Source: Escherichia phage FV3
Reading direction: 5' to 3' (one strand)
Sequence record: NC_019517.1
DNA: 64,000 nucleotides
Part shown: in pieces, positions 2,961 to 52,838 of the stretch
How the letters are laid out: each line of letters opens with the position of its first letter
How positions within the stretch are numbered: the stretch's first letter is position 1
Made by a program: the position numbers and the translations under genes
Notes under the pieces: generated by a model
The model's input: only the letters and a program-made list of their open reading frames with translations
The model's database searches: none
Told to the model about the DNA's origin: nothing

Positions 2961-3307
2961 AGAAGTTGATTGTGTGGCTGGATGACTTGAGAGATCCGTC
3001 AAATTATGGGCTCCCAGATGCTCTTTGGCTAAAGAATTCCTCTGAGTTTATGGATTTTATTAACGATAAGGGAAAGCTCTACAGGCGCGTTTCTGAGTGG
3101 CACATGGACAACGACCTTGGAGAGGTATTTGAAGGGTACGATTGCCTATCTATGCTGGAAGAAAAATTTGTATTTGGTAAGCCTCCTGTAGTTGACAACG
3201 TGAAGATTTTCGTGCATACTTCTAACCCATCAGCCGCTCGTAAATTCATGCTTGCTGCTGACTCGTTTAAAAAGTTTGGAATAGAGATTAAACAAAACAT
3301 CTACTGA
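2957..3307 (+). CDS. hypothetical protein (116 aa)
   Basis: track ORF overlapping stop of upstream gene; no recognised motif. Confidence 0.4.
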   Translation: MKKLIVWLDDLRDPSNYGLPDALWLKNSSEFMDFINDKGKLYRRVSEWHMDNDLGEVFEGYDCLSMLEEKFVFGKPPVVDNVKIFVHTSNPSAARKFMLAADSFKKFGIEIKQNIY

Positions 3308-24734: not shown

Positions 24735-25204
24735 ATATTGCCGGGTATACAGAGATATCTTACACCGAGGGACCAGGTATTAGGACAGCTTTGTGGGTAT
24801 CTGGGTGCCCACACGCTTGTCCTGGTTGCTTTAATCAAGCATTTTGGTCAAAAGATAAAGGAAGAGTGTTCACCGAAGAAGATTTGCAGAAAATTTTGTC
24901 GGATTTAGACAATGAATCTGTATGCGGTATTTCTTTACTAGGTGGAGAGCCTTTGGCTACTTATAATGAGCCAGGTATTATTGACCTTATGAGGAGAATT
25001 AAGGAAAAGTTTGGTGACAAGAAAACTATTCTTGTGTATACTGGGTTCACATTTGAGCATATCTCTAGTGATGTTCTTAAACTGGCTGATATCGTCATTG
25101 ATGGAAAGTATGTAAAAGATTTACCAACCAAGAAACCATTCCGAGGCAGCGATAACCAAAGAATGTTTAAAAAGGTAGCAGGAGGTTGGGTTCAGGTTGA
25201 CTAA
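24731..25204 (+). CDS. nrdG: anaerobic RNR activating enzyme (radical SAM)
   Basis: CPHACPGC (CxxxCxxC) cluster; follows nrdD. Confidence 0.85.
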   Translation: MNIAGYTEISYTEGPGIRTALWVSGCPHACPGCFNQAFWSKDKGRVFTEEDLQKILSDLDNESVCGISLLGGEPLATYNEPGIIDLMRRIKEKFGDKKTILVYTGFTFEHISSDVLKLADIVIDGKYVKDLPTKKPFRGSDNQRMFKKVAGGWVQVD

Positions 25205-36695: not shown

Positions 36696-37046
36696 ATGAA
36701 AGTAGAGATCACAGGTTTTGATATGAATGTGGTTCCGGAAGATATTTTAGCTAAACTTCCGGAAGGTTTTGGTAACGGTGTTGTGGTGGATGCTGTCCCT
36801 CCTACCAAAGACATTCTGCTGCAGTATGGTGTAGCAGAGGAAGATGTCGATAAAGTTCTTACAATGATGGCAATAGACCGTGTTGTCGTTGTTAAAGGTC
36901 TTGAAGGTTTTGATGACGATCCTCTGATTATTCGTGGTGATGACTATCGCATCATCGACAACGAAGGCCAAGAGTTCTACGAACCTTCTGCTGAAGATGT
37001 TCTTAACTTACTACTGGAAGCAGGCACCGAAGAGGAGGAAGAATAA
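36696..37046 (+). CDS. small acidic protein, paralog family A-like
   Basis: MKVEITG...poly-Glu C-terminus. Confidence 0.45.
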   Translation: MKVEITGFDMNVVPEDILAKLPEGFGNGVVVDAVPPTKDILLQYGVAEEDVDKVLTMMAIDRVVVVKGLEGFDDDPLIIRGDDYRIIDNEGQEFYEPSAEDVLNLLLEAGTEEEEE

Positions 37047-44574: not shown

Positions 44575-44643
44575 TCTGTCATGTTGGCGGCATCATTGCC
44601 GCCCTACGAAATACATTCTACCCGATTTGTAATTGTTGTCAAA

Positions 44644-44868
44644 CTAATTTTTACAAGGGATCAGTAAACTTCTTGCTACTGCTTCGCGTAGTCCTTGACT
44701 TTTTATCAGATCTATTGTTGCAGGATGGCAAGTAAAAGCCTTTGACCATTTTTGATCCCCTGGTTTACGGGCAAAAATGTAAACTTCCCCGTCGATTTCA
44801 TCCCAACGAGTATTGCTTGTTAGTTTTTTAAGCGCCATGATGATTTCCCTTTTAGTTGTGAGCGGCAC
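44644..44868 (-). CDS. hypothetical protein (74 aa)
   Basis: track ORF. Confidence 0.4.
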   Translation of the reverse strand: MPLTTKREIIMALKKLTSNTRWDEIDGEVYIFARKPGDQKWSKAFTCHPATIDLIKSQGLREAVARSLLIPCKN

Positions 44869-44913
44869 TATTGCCGCCCTATGTGATACATCTTAAACTA
44901 ATTTAAAACGTTG

Positions 44914-45147
44914 TCAACACTTTTCAAAAAATTTTTCTGCCGTGATATTCTTCCCGGTAGGGTTCGCTACTTTCAAAATTTTATCATGCACTGGACGCCC
45001 AAAAGAATAAGCGCCGTACACAGTGCACCAATAATCGCCGTCAGGCTGTACTATTACCGCCGCATAGGGTACGCCTTTTTCGTTTTTGCTGACAAAATAG
45101 ATCACATTGCCATTAATAGCCTCAGCGCGTTTAATTTGTTCCATCAT
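44914..45147 (-). CDS. hypothetical protein (77 aa)
   Basis: track ORF. Confidence 0.4.
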   Translation of the reverse strand: MMEQIKRAEAINGNVIYFVSKNEKGVPYAAVIVQPDGDYWCTVYGAYSFGRPVHDKILKVANPTGKNITAEKFFEKC

Positions 45148-46045: not shown

Positions 46046-46068
46046 TGATTATTTTAACAGGGTTTAAA

Positions 46069-46113
46069 TTTACTTTATTGATGGCCCTGGAGTCAAGGCC
46101 ATCTAAAAATAAA
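46069..46113. repeat. 45-bp conserved intergenic element, copy 1
   Basis: TTTACTTTATTGATGGCCCTGGAGTCAAGGCCATCTAAAAATAAA with GATGGCC/GGCCATC inverted repeat. Confidence 0.7.
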
Positions 46114-46115
46114 CT

Positions 46116-46316
46116 TTACAGGCCTACAATATCTTTAATTCGTTTTACTGCTGCCTCAGCGCCTTGAGGGTAAAAATTATGGTAACCAATCACGCGGGTA
46201 ATACTGATCGCCGCCTGATGATCTTCATAATACCCCTTGAATATTTCTTGACCATCAACCAGCACAGCAATTTTTTCTTCTTTTTTGAAGTTAATAACGC
46301 GGATATTGTTGCTCAT
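46116..46316 (-). CDS. hypothetical protein (66 aa)
   Basis: track ORF. Confidence 0.4.
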   Translation of the reverse strand: MSNNIRVINFKKEEKIAVLVDGQEIFKGYYEDHQAAISITRVIGYHNFYPQGAEAAVKRIKDIVGL

Positions 46317-46461
46317 TTTGTTTCTCCTTTTGGAACTTTGTCTGTGTGGTGGGGAGTGTCTCCCCGTTGATTGTTATTATCCATATTTTTGACCGGGTTG
46401 CAACACCCCGGAAGAAAAATTTTTTGAAAAAAGTTAGGCCCCCAGGGATCGGGGGCCGTTA

Positions 46462-46581
46462 TCAGTTACTTACAGCGATAAAATACATCCCTACGCCTAA
46501 CAATATTTCAAGGGCGATGATCTCAAGCCATACCATAACACGGCGCGCCTTATCGGTGCGGGGCTTATCCTTGGGTGTCAT
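46462..46581 (-). CDS. hydrophobic micro-protein (about 39 aa)
   Basis: minus-strand ATG after SD GGAGG; MTPKDKPRTDKARRVMVWLEIIALEILLGVGMYFIAVSN. Confidence 0.3.
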   Translation of the reverse strand: MTPKDKPRTDKARRVMVWLEIIALEILLGVGMYFIAVSN

Positions 46582-46800
46582 CGTCTCCCCCTTTCCTCCT
46601 GTTAGTAGTGACGTGGTTTACAATGGTCCCCAGGAGTACTATCGCCACGCACATTACGAGAAAAATTATTTCTTCCGTTGTTCGGTCCATTATTATAAAA
46701 GTCCTCAAGATCAGGCCTAAAAGTAAATCCTTCGTTATTGAATCCATCCCGCCAGGCGGCTGGCCTCAAATCTTCACTAAATGGATTAATTAACGTGGCA

Positions 46801-47205
46801 TTATTTAAACGGCTGGCCCACATATTTTCTATTCCTCTCAAATAGGCGATCCGCCTCAGTTAAACAAATCTCATGGGCGTGATCTCTGGTTTTAGCTTCA
46901 TCGAAAACCTGTTGTGCAAGGCTGCAACGTAGGGAGACTGGAAGATCGCTATAATAGGCGTTAACAAACGTTTGAGCGTCGTACAGGTCTGAAAATACTT
47001 TACCCTTTCTATTATTCCCCTTGTCAACAATTGCAAGGATAACCAATACAATAGTTGCAACCACCCCCAGGAAAATAGATATAATAAACCATAAAAAGGC
47101 GGATCTCCCCATCTTGCCAGCGATCCAGGCGTTAAACAAGGCAACCAATATAGCCAAAATAATAAATTCCATTCTATGTACCTCTTTTACAGTTCTGATC
47201 AACAA
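46801..47205 (-). CDS. membrane protein (134 aa)
   Basis: two N-terminal TM helices. Confidence 0.45.
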   Translation of the reverse strand: MLIRTVKEVHRMEFIILAILVALFNAWIAGKMGRSAFLWFIISIFLGVVATIVLVILAIVDKGNNRKGKVFSDLYDAQTFVNAYYSDLPVSLRCSLAQQVFDEAKTRDHAHEICLTEADRLFERNRKYVGQPFK

Positions 47206-47236
47206 TAAGGCGGCAAATATGCCGCCTGTTACCTGA

Positions 47237-47617
47237 TTAAAAATTATCGCCGTAAATCTTTCCGCTTTCTACCCATACCACCACGCGAGGCATACTATCC
47301 CACACGTCTTGTTTTAGATTGAGCGCGTGCAATTCTTCGGTGGTGCTCATACCGGGCACGGGCTGATTGTATACTGCAAAACGACCACCCGCATAATCAT
47401 AGGCCAGGGTTAAATCACACTGGATCATCTTTTTGATCATGGCATTAAGCATGGCGTTAGCCGCATACTGATCACGTTTTAAAGGCAACTCTTTGATTAG
47501 TTTGCGATAGTTTTCGATATGGTCGCACACTGTTTCACGCGGAAGATCTTTCATATCTTCACGGAATGTAACCAGGTTAAACATAACGGTGTCAATAGCC
47601 TTGGTAGTGTTTTTCAT
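47237..47617 (-). CDS. hypothetical protein (126 aa)
   Basis: preceded by promoter TTGCAA-N16-TATATT and 5'-UTR hairpin. Confidence 0.45.
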   Translation of the reverse strand: MKNTTKAIDTVMFNLVTFREDMKDLPRETVCDHIENYRKLIKELPLKRDQYAANAMLNAMIKKMIQCDLTLAYDYAGGRFAVYNQPVPGMSTTEELHALNLKQDVWDSMPRVVVWVESGKIYGDNF

Positions 47618-47705
47618 GATTTTATCCTCTTTGTTTTGTGTGGGGCAAGACGTTTGCCCCTTGAGTTTTAATATAGCAGGTTTTTAGATTATTGCAACAC
47701 TTTAT

Positions 47706-48329
47706 TTATGAAAAACTCATCTCCCCATATTCATCCACATCAAACCTCCAATCATTGGCCTCAATAAGGCCGATCAGGTTTTCGGTAGTGAACTGTTCTA
47801 GATAGGCCTCCTCCAGGTCTACGTAAACCTTGCGGGATAGCTCCCGTACCGTCTCGGTGATCAGCTCTTCCAGGTCTTCCACTTTGTTTTCTTGTTTAGC
47901 GGTCAGATCTAGCCATGTGGTATCAATGTACCCGCTTACAGTGTTTTCATGGCTGTAATGGCTGTACTTGTCGCGTTCAATACTGGCGGATAGTTCGCCA
48001 TCGTGCATTGTGCCGAACAAGTGACGAATTGATCTGAACTTGGTCAGGGCCTTGACTTTACGCAAGAATTTTTCTAAGTCTACATTTTCAGCACTGATCG
48101 ATGCGCCATCGCCTTGACACCAAAAGCCGGACCAATGTACTTCGGTATCTTCAAGGCCGTACTCTGGAAAAACTTGTTCTTTATAGTATTCAATTACATT
48201 TTCTGCGAAAAAATCATCCCCGCTGCGTTCTTCTCTTTCGCGGACCATTTCAATGGCTTTTTCTTTTTGTTCGTCGGTCAGCACGTCGAAAGATAAATTG
48301 TAACCTGTGGTAATGTTAACGGTGGTCAT
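47706..48329 (-). CDS. hypothetical acidic protein (207 aa)
   Basis: preceded by promoter TTGACA-N16-TATAAT (minus strand, about 48376-48404) and 5'-UTR hairpin. Confidence 0.5.
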   Translation of the reverse strand: MTTVNITTGYNLSFDVLTDEQKEKAIEMVREREERSGDDFFAENVIEYYKEQVFPEYGLEDTEVHWSGFWCQGDGASISAENVDLEKFLRKVKALTKFRSIRHLFGTMHDGELSASIERDKYSHYSHENTVSGYIDTTWLDLTAKQENKVEDLEELITETVRELSRKVYVDLEEAYLEQFTTENLIGLIEANDWRFDVDEYGEMSFS

Positions 48330-48403
48330 GATATTTTCTCCTGTTTTCTTTGTTAGTGGCGGGAAGTTTTCCCGCCTATGTTTTTAATTATACTTATTGA
48401 GAT

Positions 48404-48664
48404 CTACTTGTCAACACTATTTTTTAAATTATTGTGGCGCAAAATGTTTAAAATCTCCTCAACGTCATCAACACGGCGGCAATTTTTAAACGCTACCAAT
48501 TGCCCCATGATTTTAATCACTGGGCGGCCTTGCCAGTGCCCCTGAAGAAAGCGCGCCTTGACTTTATCGGTGGAACTATCACGCCACCAAATAGCCTTGT
48601 TGTTGCAGTAGTAAAAATTATTCAGGATAACATCAACTTTATCAAAATTTTTTAATTTACGCAT
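48404..48664 (-). CDS. hypothetical protein (86 aa)
   Basis: track ORF. Confidence 0.4.
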   Translation of the reverse strand: MRKLKNFDKVDVILNNFYYCNNKAIWWRDSSTDKVKARFLQGHWQGRPVIKIMGQLVAFKNCRRVDDVEEILNILRHNNLKNSVDK

Positions 48665-48883
48665 GGCGTTTACTCCTTTCTCTCTTTGATGTGGTTAGTA
48701 TAGCTAACCTGTTGACGATGTCAATGATATTTTTAACGCCATAAAACGGCCCTAGGCGATGCTTTCAGGTTAAAGGGGGGCGATTGCATAGGTGGGGGCC
48801 TTTTTGGCGCTTACAGGGCCAACCAGGGGCGCTATTCGTAGGATAGAAATAAAAAGCCCCGCACAATGGCGGGGCGTTGGTTG

Positions 48884-49081
48884 TTATTTGTCTTTATGGC
48901 GGTATCGTTCTGCCTGTCGTTCACGTTCCAAAAGTAGGCCGGGCAATTTACGATCATAATGATTCCGCCAGATCTTCCCAAACCTTTTTGGCTTATTCAG
49001 TTTATTGTTGCGCTGTCGGCGTTCTGGCAGCTCTTCGGAATCATGAGGGCGCTTTACAATTTTCTCGAAATTAATTTTCAT
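48884..49081 (-). CDS. highly basic small protein (65 aa)
   Basis: internal ATG with SD AAGGGGGG; track ORF 48884..49105. Confidence 0.4.
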   Translation of the reverse strand: MKINFEKIVKRPHDSEELPERRQRNNKLNKPKRFGKIWRNHYDRKLPGLLLERERQAERYRHKDK

Positions 49082-49424
49082 ATATTCCCCCCTTGCTAAC
49101 TTCAATATTGGCCTGAATAGCCCGGATACGGCGCTTTATAACTTCCTGATCTGTGTGGTCGTATCCCCAAAAGTCTACAATTTTTGCGCCCCCCGCCTCC
49201 AGGCGGTATAGTGTTTCCTGCATTTTGTAAGCCGGGATCGGTCGCGGTGTTACTTGGTCGCCTTCTTTATTTTTATACTTTATAATATAATCTTCGTTAT
49301 CGTTGAATGTCCAAAATGGATATTCTGCAAGGGCGGTACTTCCTCTTTCCTTTTTATCCTGGATCTTGTTTACAATTAAAGCCGTAGCAATAGCGCCAAT
49401 AATAAAACTAGCCCCGCTGATCAT
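49071..49424 (-). CDS. membrane-anchored protein (117 aa)
   Basis: N-terminal TM helix. Confidence 0.45.
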   Translation of the reverse strand: MISGASFIIGAIATALIVNKIQDKKERGSTALAEYPFWTFNDNEDYIIKYKNKEGDQVTPRPIPAYKMQETLYRLEAGGAKIVDFWGYDHTDQEVIKRRIRAIQANIEVSKGGIYEN

Positions 49425-49500
49425 GTGTACTTTCTCCTTTCATGGTGTTAATAAATTATCTTTATAGATGGCCCTGCAACCAGGACCACCGAAAAAATAA

Positions 49501-49746
49501 CTATTTCACAATGCCTACAAAACAGATCCCGCCTTCACCTATGTAAGCAATATCGGTAACTTTATAATTTGTCAAGATCTGCTTATTTAGTTCATTAATA
49601 AAATCGGTCATTGCGTTGGTGTAGTTGTCTTCCATGTCTAGGGAATAATCCCAGGCGTAGACCTTTTTACGCCCGAAGCCTTTTACCATGATACGGGCGC
49701 TTTTGGTGTTGGTGGGCGCATAATATTTTGTGATTAGTGCTGCCAT
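49501..49746 (-). CDS. hypothetical protein (81 aa)
   Basis: track ORF. Confidence 0.4.
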   Translation of the reverse strand: MAALITKYYAPTNTKSARIMVKGFGRKKVYAWDYSLDMEDNYTNAMTDFINELNKQILTNYKVTDIAYIGEGGICFVGIVK

Positions 49747-49787
49747 GGGTTTTAACTCCTCATTAGTTCAGTGTTAACAGTGTAAAG

Positions 49788-49832
49788 TTTACTTTATTGA
49801 TGGCCCTGGAGTCAAGGCCATCTAAAAATAAA
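49788..49832. repeat. 45-bp conserved intergenic element, copy 2
   Basis: identical core to copy 1. Confidence 0.7.
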
Positions 49833-49834
49833 TT

Positions 49835-50176
49835 TTACTCGTTTTCTTCCAGCTCTGAAAGCTCTTCTTTCACTTCTTCCAGCTCTGTCTGCAATTCCTG
49901 GTATTCTTCATCGTCCTCAATATCCAGGCTGTCGATGTAGTCGCTAAATCCGCAGCGGTAAGCGATAGGATCTAACTCCTTGAGGATACGCGACGGAAGA
50001 AAAGAAATGTTTCCGATCATAATTTCGCCGTAGATCTCGTCTAGCCATTCATCATAGTTTTCGTCGTACTTGTCCTCGTCGATTTCAAAGTTATCGATCT
50101 TGTTCTCAAGGTCTGCGATCTGTTTTTTCAGCGCGGCGATCTGCATAGCTTTTTCTGCGGCGGTCATAGTAGTCAT
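49835..50176 (-). CDS. hypothetical acidic coiled-coil protein (113 aa)
   Basis: track ORF. Confidence 0.45.
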   Translation of the reverse strand: MTTMTAAEKAMQIAALKKQIADLENKIDNFEIDEDKYDENYDEWLDEIYGEIMIGNISFLPSRILKELDPIAYRCGFSDYIDSLDIEDDEEYQELQTELEEVKEELSELEENE

Positions 50177-50409
50177 GGTGTTTTCTCCTTTTTTGTGTTT
50201 TGGGAAGTTTTCCCGTTTACGTGTTTAAGTATACCGATTTAGGTTAGCTTGTCAATTAAAAATTTAAGAAAAATTTTGCAAAACTGTTGGCGCTACTCAT
50301 TAACATTTGCGCCAGGATGTAACCGACAACGCAAACGATAATAGTTACCTTTGTGTATTGGCGTGTAGTGCTCATCTTAAAGCCCCCTTTTTCGCTTAGT
50401 TGAGACTAG

Positions 50410-50454
50410 TTTACTTTATTGATGGCCCTGGAGTCAAGGCCATCTAAAAATAAA
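50410..50454. repeat. 45-bp conserved intergenic element, copy 3
   Basis: identical core to copy 1. Confidence 0.7.
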
Positions 50455-50455
50455 C

Positions 50456-50860
50456 TTAATAAGTTTTCAGTACTTTCCCGTCCAACCTGTCAAGCTGGAT
50501 CTCGATAGCTGCAGAAAATCTATTGTACACCACGTCGCCCATAGAATCCAACCAATCTATGACGTTATATACCTGCTCTTTATTCTTACAGGTCCGGATC
50601 CGTTTCATGATGTAAGCCGGATCAATATTGGTACTCTCGTTGGTGTTCCCCTGTACCTGGTTTGCCGTATTAGTTACATCTTTAATGGCCTTTACCACCA
50701 CCTGGAATGGCTTTAAGGTGCCTTTTGCGTTCATCTCACGCGCTTTTGCGGCGCGGTTGTTGTATGTTACACAACGGCGGCAAATGTTGATCAAATGCAT
50801 GTCAATAATTTTTTCATCGTTTGCCAGCTCGTTCATGATGCGGCGTACGTTCTTATTCAT
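50456..50860 (-). CDS. hypothetical protein (134 aa)
   Basis: preceded by promoter-like TTGACA and 5'-UTR hairpin GGCGGGAA...TTCCCGCC. Confidence 0.45.
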   Translation of the reverse strand: MNKNVRRIMNELANDEKIIDMHLINICRRCVTYNNRAAKAREMNAKGTLKPFQVVVKAIKDVTNTANQVQGNTNESTNIDPAYIMKRIRTCKNKEQVYNVIDWLDSMGDVVYNRFSAAIEIQLDRLDGKVLKTY

Positions 50861-51899: not shown

Positions 51900-52838
51900 T
51901 AACATAGGCCCACCAGGCTGGCCCCGCCAGGTTGCAGCGGTTAGCGCATCAGGTTAGAATTTTTTTTTTTTTGAAAAGTGTTGACAGCGGCCCCGCCAGG
52001 TGGCACAATATACATATCGAAAGGACGGCAGGCACCGGTGACGGGGGAGACAACCACCGGGGATGGGCGCTGCATGAAATGAGAACGATTATCATTATCG
52101 TCTAAAAATTTATGCAAAAACTTCTTGCTTTCTTTGTCCTGTGTGATACTATAATAACAAGCCGGGGCAGTAGGGGCCGGGAGACAATCACCGGGGGTGC
52201 CCGTTATTCTGCAAACGAGAATGATTATCATTCAAAATTCTAAATGAGAACTTTTCGCATTTCATAAATTTAGTTAGCATGCTAATTACCTACCGTGACA
52301 ATTCTATATAAAATAATACCTCATAAAATATTCCCATATAGAAATTTTAAAAATCCATTTCTGAAAACGAAAAATCGCTTTCGTTCCCAAAAATTTTAGA
52401 TCTGGTGCTGGACCAATTTCAAGAAAATCCGATTCAGAAAACGAAAAACAGATCGAGTACCGAAAAATTTATCGAGAAAAATTTTCAGAAAATCCAATCT
52501 TTGAAATGAAAAACAGATCGAGTACTGAGAGAGATGTATCAAAACTTACTGATAATAATTAACTTATTGTCATAAAAGGCCGAAAGTAAGTTGGGAAAGT
52601 TCTGGTAGAAGGGTGAGAGTGTGTGCGGAAAATCTGGAACGGTGATTTGAAGTACGGTGCGAACGATAGGATGATCAGCACAGCTTATCGTGCCTGTCTT
52701 GAAAAAATCCATTTTAGTTTTCGATCCATTTTCTGATTTTCTAAGAATTTTAAAATATCCGGCCAGGTAAAATATCAAAAGGAGGAAATCCATTTTAGAA
52801 ATCCTCCTTATGTTTGATGTGCCAGGGATTTTCAAGTA
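51900..52838. other. second gene-free repeat-rich region; candidate regulatory, origin or ncRNA locus
   Basis: 14-T run, plus-strand promoter-like TTGACA-N17-CACAAT at about 51981, duplicated 70-bp unit, AAATCC(A/G)(T/A)T repeats, 22-bp direct repeat GAAAAACAGATCGAGTAC. Confidence 0.5.

Follow-up and report, generated by a model that had tools for sequence, protein, structure and literature searches.

A repeated intercistronic RNA hairpin in the early region of Escherichia phage FV3, a candidate RNase III-type processing signal

A 45-bp element that recurs between small minus-strand genes of Escherichia phage FV3 (NC_019517.1; the window referred to below is the whole stretch of 64,000 nucleotides analysed from this record) is a functional RNA hairpin on early transcripts. 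In kind it belongs with the processing signals of phage T7 and with the promoter-early stem-loop (PeSL) cassettes known from T4-type phages, neither of which has been described before in this phage group. With moderate confidence, the element is best read as a ribonuclease III (RNase III)-type processing signal that also stabilises 3' ends, a reading that builds on its geometry, on a covariance model trained on T7 sites only, and on a canonical UA/UG distal box under the loop. Cleavage, stabilisation and the weakness of a promoter embedded in the same DNA are inferred.

The 45-mer TTTACTTTATTGATGGCCCTGGAGTCAAGGCCATCTAAAAATAAA occurs exactly three times in the window without a single mismatch, at 46069-46113 (copy A), 49788-49832 (copy B) and 50410-50454 (copy C), and was found in none of 100 dinucleotide-preserving shuffles of the sequence. 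A previous reading made from the DNA letters alone (hereafter the sequence-only reading) had reported a nearly identical repeat at about these positions, each in a gap between minus-strand genes, and both points hold for all three copies. The count of three stands for the exact copies, but a repeat search combined with a relaxed palindrome search revealed a diverged fourth one, B', at 49456-49500, with ~60% identity to the others over 63 nt. All four copies belong to a single cluster of early genes and are intercistronic on the coding (minus) strand, 0-2 nt from the upstream stop codon and 25-38 nt before the next start codon. The hairpin of copy A (46067-46115) begins one base past the stop codon of the open reading frame (ORF) 46116-46316, and the next start codon (46024) follows ~38 nt downstream. 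Copy B (hairpin 49786-49834) lies directly 3' of the stop codon of a 113-aa ORF (49835-50176) and ~35 nt upstream of an 81-aa ORF (49501-49746), while the base of copy C (50408-50456) overlaps the last stop-codon base of a 134-aa ORF (50456-50860), with a 39-aa ORF (50256-50375) ~29 nt downstream. Copy B' (49454-49502) overlaps the stop codon of the 81-aa ORF, and ORF 49071-49424 begins ~25 nt downstream of it.

Folding of the coding-strand RNA returned the same two-tier structure for every copy, with an identical dot-bracket in B'. An AU-rich lower stem of 10-11 bp, in which AGUUUAUUUUU pairs with AAAGUAAAYU, is separated by a 2×3 internal loop (UA and AAU) from a GC-rich upper stem, which in A, B and C comprises 10 bp (GAUGGCCUUG/CAGGGCCAUC, with one U·G pair) under the tetraloop ACUC and in copy A spans 46080-46103. 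The upper stem of B' is GGUGGUCCUG/CAGGGCCAUC, its loop is GUUG, and it has no TTGACT. At ~21 bp in total, this hairpin is far larger than the one described in the sequence-only reading, which had rightly noticed a hairpin but gave it a 7-bp stem and a 10-nt loop holding a -35-like TTGACT. Only the ACU of this hexamer lies in the loop, whereas its UUG forms the top of the upper stem (U·G, U-A and the G-C closing pair). The -10-like hexamer constitutes the 3' strand of the lower stem, and the T-tract further upstream its 5' strand. On the minus strand, the fold energies and z-scores of the exact copies were -24.3 kcal/mol and -4.25 (A), -25.6 kcal/mol and -6.65 (B), and -25.0 kcal/mol and -5.65 (C); B' reached -24.6 kcal/mol. 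RNA from the opposite strand folded much more weakly (-17.3 kcal/mol, and -10.4 kcal/mol for B'), and single-stranded DNA gave -5.5 to -10.6 kcal/mol.

A covariance model built from the four copies of the window (R1) scored them at 84.9 (A), 83.8 (B), 83.0 (C) and 74.5 bits (B') on the coding strand and at 32-45 bits on the other strand (copy A, 40.3), and found no further copies in the 64-kb window. In the upper stem, B' differs from A, B and C by three changes which are all compatible with pairing (A-U to G·U, C-G to U·G, and U·G to C-G), and in the lower stem two pairs are swapped on both sides and thus compensatory; its loop differs and TTGACT is lost. Variation was also tabulated for 67 copies at 19 loci, made up of the window plus 18 relatives, where 98% of pair cells held standard pairs, compared to 33-57% when the partners were slid against each other. 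Double changes were present at four lower-stem pairs, the rare upper-stem changes were mostly wobble-compatible, and variation was concentrated at loop positions 3-4, which took all four bases. The hairpin core also diverges less than its flanks (at site A, 0.025 vs 0.067 and 0.096). One variant (L013:2768) has a 5-nt loop and an extra internal-loop base, which widens the apparent spacer between -35 and -10 to 20 nt and leaves the hairpin intact. The conserved unit is the RNA hairpin rather than a promoter, which is supported by its G·U pairs, its compensatory changes, and the retention of the hairpin without TTGACT in B'.

These data bear on whether the element could instead act as a DNA palindrome, either as an operator for a dimeric DNA-binding protein that would occlude the -35 hexamer or as a cruciform. 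The inverted repeat GATGGCC/GGCCATC does flank TTGACT, and the sequence is strictly conserved. However, the pairing depends on G·U, which is valid on coding-strand RNA only, as its complements are A·C mismatches; plus-strand and DNA folds are much weaker; and the changes in B' and in relatives preserve RNA pairing but not DNA symmetry. The half-sites lie 17 bp apart centre to centre, a spacing that is atypical for helix-turn-helix dimers and counts against an operator. A DNA-level palindrome is consequently very improbable. The sequence-only reading had suggested a binding site for a phage factor; a DNA-binding factor of this kind, like a stem-loop at the DNA level, is disfavoured, since the pairing is of the RNA type and confined to the coding strand.

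With 92-96% identity, the region matches E. coli myophages of the rV5 type (genus Vequintavirus), whose genomes measure ~137 kb. The element was found in 119 phage records, typically at three places in each and with 97.7-100% identity, and also in metagenome contigs of 137-138 kb, one of them from human gut. A host origin was considered and rejected, as there was no match in 5,426 complete E. coli genomes. An Rfam search with the region and with copy A alone returned no family, the hits being generic hairpin families, the best of them at 21 bits against a threshold of 55. Seventeen GenBank records (MG0656xx) titled 'Campylobacter phage', with C. jejuni or Campylobacter given as host, also match the region; among them, the records listed share 93-95% identity with this stretch of an E. 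coli Vequintavirus and contain the element.

Comparison with T7 made use of the coordinates of ten RNase III sites, which I take to be those of Dunn and Studier (1983). In folds of T7, the assumed coordinate fell within the 3' internal loop of a hairpin for most of the ten sites, which supports the coordinates themselves. Six sites (R0.3, R0.5, R1, R1.1, R4.7 and R18.5) have the two-tier geometry of the element: a GC-rich upper stem of 9-10 bp, a tetraloop, a small asymmetric internal loop and an AU-rich lower stem, all of them intercistronic in early polycistronic mRNA made by the host polymerase. The UA/AAU internal loop of R1 is identical to that of the element, and R0.5 resembles copy B' in having U-A and C-G under the loop. 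The likeness has limits: there is no sequence homology between the element and the T7 sites, the T7 sites differ among themselves whereas copies of the element are nearly identical, cleavage of the element is proposed by analogy, and FV3 is a 137-kb myovirus without a phage RNA polymerase. The upper-stem duplex also resembles the upper stem of T7 R1 with the loop on the opposite end, a resemblance to which no weight is given here.

A geometry descriptor written from the T7 sites gave nine matches on the T7 forward strand, six of them known sites, and none on the reverse strand. Within the window it recovered the four copies and one other match, where 0.9 are expected per shuffled window. This extra match (24779-24826, plus strand) is consistent with the 0.9 chance matches and was not supported by the T7-trained model. 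The latter, a covariance model trained on only the six T7 sites (R2; its structure is 95.6% paired), ranked the four copies as the top four matches in the window, with 27.1 (A), 23.4 (B'), 21.9 (C) and 19.9 bits (B) at E-values of 0.001-0.06, ~0.001 for copy A. All four matches were full length and in register with the T7 model. The next best match in the window scored 16.9 bits, the remaining 75 kb of a close relative reached at best 14 bits and 96 kb of unrelated viral contigs 13.2 bits; the background over ~270 kb of other DNA stayed at or below 16.9 bits. Among true T7 sites that had been held out, R6.5 scored 34.3 and R1.3 15.9 bits, while R3.8 and R13 went undetected.

The distal box is a third line of support. 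E. coli RNase III requires U-A and then U·G at the loop end, with the U·G being stringent (Pertzev and Nicholson, PMC1540722). Counting from the loop, copies A, B and C present G-C (the closing pair), U-A and U·G, and R1.1 presents C-G, U-A and U·G, so that both carry the U-A/U·G box below the loop-closing pair. By analogy with T7, where the assumed cleavage coordinates lie in the 3' internal loop, immediately beneath the upper stem, and because the element is in register with the T7 model, the cut is predicted after the 3-nt 3' internal loop AAU, that is at 46076/46077 (A), 49795/49796 (B), 50417/50418 (C) and 49463/49464 (B') on the minus strand.

A comparable arrangement was found next to a relative of one of the flanking genes. 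A T7-like Klebsiella phage has a homolog of the 81-aa gene in its early region, and the start codon of this homolog lies 34 nt downstream of the end of a T7-type site (39.7 bits), which is the layout of copy B. Of the loci of 81-aa homologs, this is the only one with a hairpin in the corresponding position, a classical T7-type site; the loci of KIL2 and WildeMaa showed no hairpin there. Homologs of the 81-aa early protein itself (49501-49746, minus strand) occur in Seuratvirus siphophages, Pseudomonas Flaumdravirus myophages and Klebsiella T7-like podophages, which indicates that this early gene has been widely exchanged.

Under RNase III-type processing, host RNA polymerase would read through the small early genes and each copy would fold in the mRNA at the end of the upstream gene. 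Host RNase III would then most likely recognise the hairpin as it does the early processing signals of T7 and would cut its 3' side at the internal loop, leaving the upstream message to end in a protective hairpin and freeing the downstream message with its own short A-rich leader. Here, TTG would serve as the UG/UA step and the closing pair, and TAAAYT and the T-tract as the two strands of the lower stem. If this is correct, the early polycistronic messages of rV5-like phages are divided, in the manner of T7, into stable mRNAs for single genes. These phages are widely used in E. coli O157 typing, biocontrol and therapy.

The upper stem is not confined to rV5-like phages. When viral contigs were scanned for exact matches to the 3' arm and lower stem, mostly chance matches resulted. 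Exact scans with the upper stem returned the rV5-type copies together with a much larger, unannotated second family, comprising >150 distinct contexts among the matches listed. These reside in prophage-like contigs of 30-60 kb and in Pseudomonas temperate phages such as phiPSA1, Medea1, psageK9 and AUS531phi (examples are L076:3403-3445 and L092:3503-3545, with other contexts in loci L040-L233). Their consensus, GAUUUC-A-CUG-G-CUGGCCUUG-GCGA-CAGGGCCAG-A-CGG-GAAAUC, forms an 18-bp hairpin with a GNRA loop. Many unrelated genes have it 10-25 nt upstream of their ribosome-binding site, and in phiPSA1 and Medea1 it is downstream of cI. The apical stem UGGCCUUG-loop-CAGGGCCA is identical to that of the element, including the U·G wobble; it likewise lies on the RNA of the coding strand, ahead of a variety of unrelated genes, and recurs within some contigs. 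The two differ in their loops (GCGA and GCAA vs ACNN), in the lower part, which is short, GC-richer and has 1-nt interruptions in the Pseudomonas-phage family, in the absence of a -10-like hexamer from the latter, and in hosts and phage types. Proteins encoded downstream of the Pseudomonas-phage hairpins were unrelated to the flanking proteins of the window, an Rfam search of these loci gave no match, and a literature search for the stem sequence found no paper.

The family was also collected through its outer flanks, with the apical 20 nt left free. In the resulting 122 contexts, pairs 1, 3 and 8 (the closing pair) covary, while the U-A and U·G below the closing pair are each kept in 120 of the 122. 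This invariant U-A/U·G is the distal-box signature of RNase III, and it marks the TTG of the supposed -35 hexamer as a feature of the hairpin. A wider proposal would have the Vequintavirus element and the Pseudomonas-phage hairpins form one undescribed, horizontally spreading class of phage processing cassettes, in which an apical UA/UG-box hairpin recruits host RNase III, or another double-stranded-RNA-binding factor common to E. coli and Pseudomonas, before genes that have been newly acquired. The same 50 bp would additionally act as a promoter in Vequintavirus, so that each cassette would bring a transcript start, a 3' end for the upstream message and a recombination handle. This proposal is tentative and, taken as a whole, rather unlikely, but the cross-family apical stem is a testable candidate for a general RNA module that phages place beside accessory genes.

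Several observations weigh against RNase III-type processing. The E-values of R2 are modest and roughly calibrated, and the four copies are not independent of each other. R2 also gave no matches to the Pseudomonas-phage hairpins, and the literature on Vequintavirus yielded no experimental 5'- or 3'-end data. The proximal box fits only in part. RNase III prefers G-C, A-U/U-A, A-U and A-U/U-A here and disfavours G-C/C-G at positions 2 and 4 (PMC1540722); in register with R1.1, positions 1 (U-A) and 3 (G-C) of the element are non-canonical. Position 2 (A-U) fits and there is no inhibitory G-C; position 4 is the A·A mismatch of the internal loop, which is no catalytic antideterminant, and natural T7 sites likewise deviate from the proximal-box consensus. 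Moreover, the conserved loop bases A and C of copies A, B and C are left unexplained, because RNase III has no tetraloop requirement (PMC1540722), and they are a better fit to a -35 TTGAC. Phage rV5_ev146 (L022, LR699804.1) is without copies A and C, and copy C of phage Gotham has a 5-nt deletion, which shows that single copies are dispensable. Finally, the stem sequence is conserved beyond what structure alone requires, which makes another sequence-specific reader possible.

Candidates for such a reader are proteins encoded by the phage or the host and RNA polymerase itself, with the hairpin acting in put- or nut-like antitermination or as a translational operator. Both stem strands are sequence-invariant across the 119 genomes, and the same apical stem recurs with GNRA loops in the >150 Pseudomonas temperate phage contexts among the matches listed, including the position downstream of cI in phiPSA1 and Medea1 where lambdoid phages have nutL; the lack of any Rfam match is also compatible with a novel site of this kind. 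However, no candidate protein was identified, and since the loops are wholly different (ACNN vs GNRA), the two families are unlikely to have in common a protein that, like N, reads the loop. The invariant part is precisely the U-A/U·G step, a known RNase III determinant, and the element follows genes within operons, and not only promoters. A different RNA-binding factor is therefore quite unlikely.

The fit of the loop bases to TTGAC leads to the question of whether the element is primarily a sigma-70 promoter for the downstream gene, made up of a UP-like T-tract, TTGACT, an 18-nt spacer and TAAAYT, with the hairpin being incidental or modulating. A promoter scan found TTGACT at 46091-46096 (A), 49810-49815 (B) and 50432-50437 (C), followed on the minus strand by TAAATT at 46067-46072 (A) and TAAACT at 49786-49791 (B) and 50408-50413 (C); the sequence-only reading had correctly seen these -10-like hexamers, which lie 18 nt from TTGACT, so that each of the three exact copies agrees with the sigma-70 consensus at 9/12 positions. 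PhagePromoter predicts copies A and B in the Gotham record, TTGAC is retained in 47 of 50 A, B and C copies while the next two bases take all four values, the weaker U·G pair is kept although C-G is tolerated in B', and the predicted start would leave an ordinary leader of 20-30 nt. T7 provides a precedent, as its minor E. coli promoters C and E overlap RNase III hairpins, their sigma-70 starts at 3113 and 36836 lying within the hairpin DNA of R1 (3102-3148) and R18.5 (36817-36867). The overlap is equally a precedent for promoter-like hexamers that arise from AU-rich lower stems. It is not a complete parallel, since the T7 starts are inside the hairpin, whereas that of the element would be just downstream of it.

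Against a primary promoter, B' has the hairpin but no -35 and no match in the promoter scan, and the L013:2768 variant combines an intact hairpin with a 20-nt spacer. Matches of 9/12 are near chance level (38 found vs 22 expected per 10 kb) and an 18-nt spacer is suboptimal. The TTG is the UA/UG step plus closing pair that is invariant in the Pseudomonas-phage family without any -10, and the -10 and UP-like tract are two strands of one AU-rich helix. The clear early promoters of this phage are of the TTGACA-N16/17-TATAAT type and lie elsewhere than the element, and strong consensus promoters already serve the cluster (50936, 50255, 48724 and 48414); the paper on the type phage lists neither promoter nor terminator at the element. 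A primary promoter function is thus unlikely. I consider the sigma-70-like hexamers to be largely by-products of the hairpin that would constitute at most a minor internal promoter in three of the four copies, and genuine promoter activity of A, B and C in a secondary role is possible, if somewhat doubtful. The sequence-only reading had suggested a regulated promoter with a loop-held -35 or a bifunctional promoter and processing site; the second option comes close to the evidence, while the first is unsupported as the primary function.

Existing annotations of the element conflict, with Murica labelling copies A and B' as terminators and Gotham labelling copies A and B as promoters (by PhagePromoter), while neither the promoter and terminator tables of the rV5 genome paper nor the rV5 reference record contains it. 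If the copies are indeed RNase III sites, this conflict would be settled. An intrinsic (rho-independent) terminator or attenuator would agree with the Murica annotation and with proposals made for PeSL, whose stem-loops cut downstream lacZ expression as much as rrnB T1 (PMC2839356). However, neither strand has a U-tract after the hairpin (the 3' flank reads AAUAAAGUAAA in the coding direction and UAAAAAUAAA in the opposite one), the U-rich tract being upstream of the hairpin and paired into its lower stem. A terminator scan listed hairpins at 46457, 48875 and 47227 in this region and none of the four copies. The terminator reading was rejected for want of a U-tract after the hairpin and is extremely improbable.

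Besides its proposed role in RNA processing, the element acts as a recombination handle, which is demonstrated by three natural deletions. The cassette between B and C (49833-50454, minus strand, 622 bp), which holds the 113-aa ORF, the 39-aa ORF and the strong promoter at 50255, is deleted exactly copy-to-copy in phage ECP32 and in one IMG/VR contig, leaving a chimera of the 5' flank of C and the 3' flank of B whose alignment blocks overlap by the 47 nt of the element. The cassette between B' and B (49477-49788, minus strand, ~310-330 bp) with the 81-aa gene is lost in phage 241Ecol014PP by a crossover within the element, which joined the 5' part of B to the 3' part of B' with a 21-nt overlap. 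For both cassettes, the overlap between the alignment blocks is exactly the repeat that they share. Being identical over 45-59 bp, the copies serve homologous recombination as substrates, by which the intervening gene cassettes are deleted or reshuffled. If the copies are RNase III sites, this would also account for where early-gene deletions arise in these genomes. Phage rV5_ev146 carries two further deletions, one of ~5.5 kb that includes copy A and one of ~0.5 kb that includes copy C and ORF194; they were rejected as copy-to-copy events because neither ends at the element, and they indicate that the affected part of the early region is dispensable.

This behaviour is reminiscent of the PeSL cassettes of the T4-type phages RB49/phi1, PST and nt-1, which are recombining composites of a promoter and a stem-loop (PMC2839356, PMC4122927). 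Both are repeated, conserved intergenic motifs in gene-variable early regions full of small ORFans, and in both a stem-loop containing G-T pairs overlaps a sigma-70-like promoter sequence; the element lies, as PeSLs do, at or over its promoter-like hexamers between small early ORFs. Recombination between copies deletes or exchanges the intervening cassette in both systems, and the copies of the element do mediate the loss of the genes they flank. PeSL promoters are near-perfect and strong, whereas the match of the element is weak (9/12 with the 18-nt spacer) and missing in B'. In PeSLs, a simple G(n)-loop-C(n) hairpin usually sits over the -10 or in the space between it and the -35, whereas the long two-tier hairpin of the element encloses both hexamers, and there is no sequence similarity between the two. 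Four near-consensus sigma-70 promoters (TTGACA-N16-TATAAT-like) on the minus strand, at 50202-50255, 48361-48414, 44582-44642 and 44857-44917, are each followed within ~10 nt by a GC-rich hairpin; they make up two repeat families and fit the strict PeSL definition better than the element does.

Two further repeat arrays were observed elsewhere in the window. At 398-478, four 17-bp palindromes (TGTCCGT-N4-CGGACA) with a spacing of 21-22 bp occupy a non-coding gap upstream of the minus-strand ORF 554-904, compared to 0.8 sites expected by chance in the whole window, and they look like an operator array. A gene-poor stretch at 52341-52528 contains three imperfect direct repeats of ~49 nt, spaced by 74 and 65 nt, which are iteron-like.

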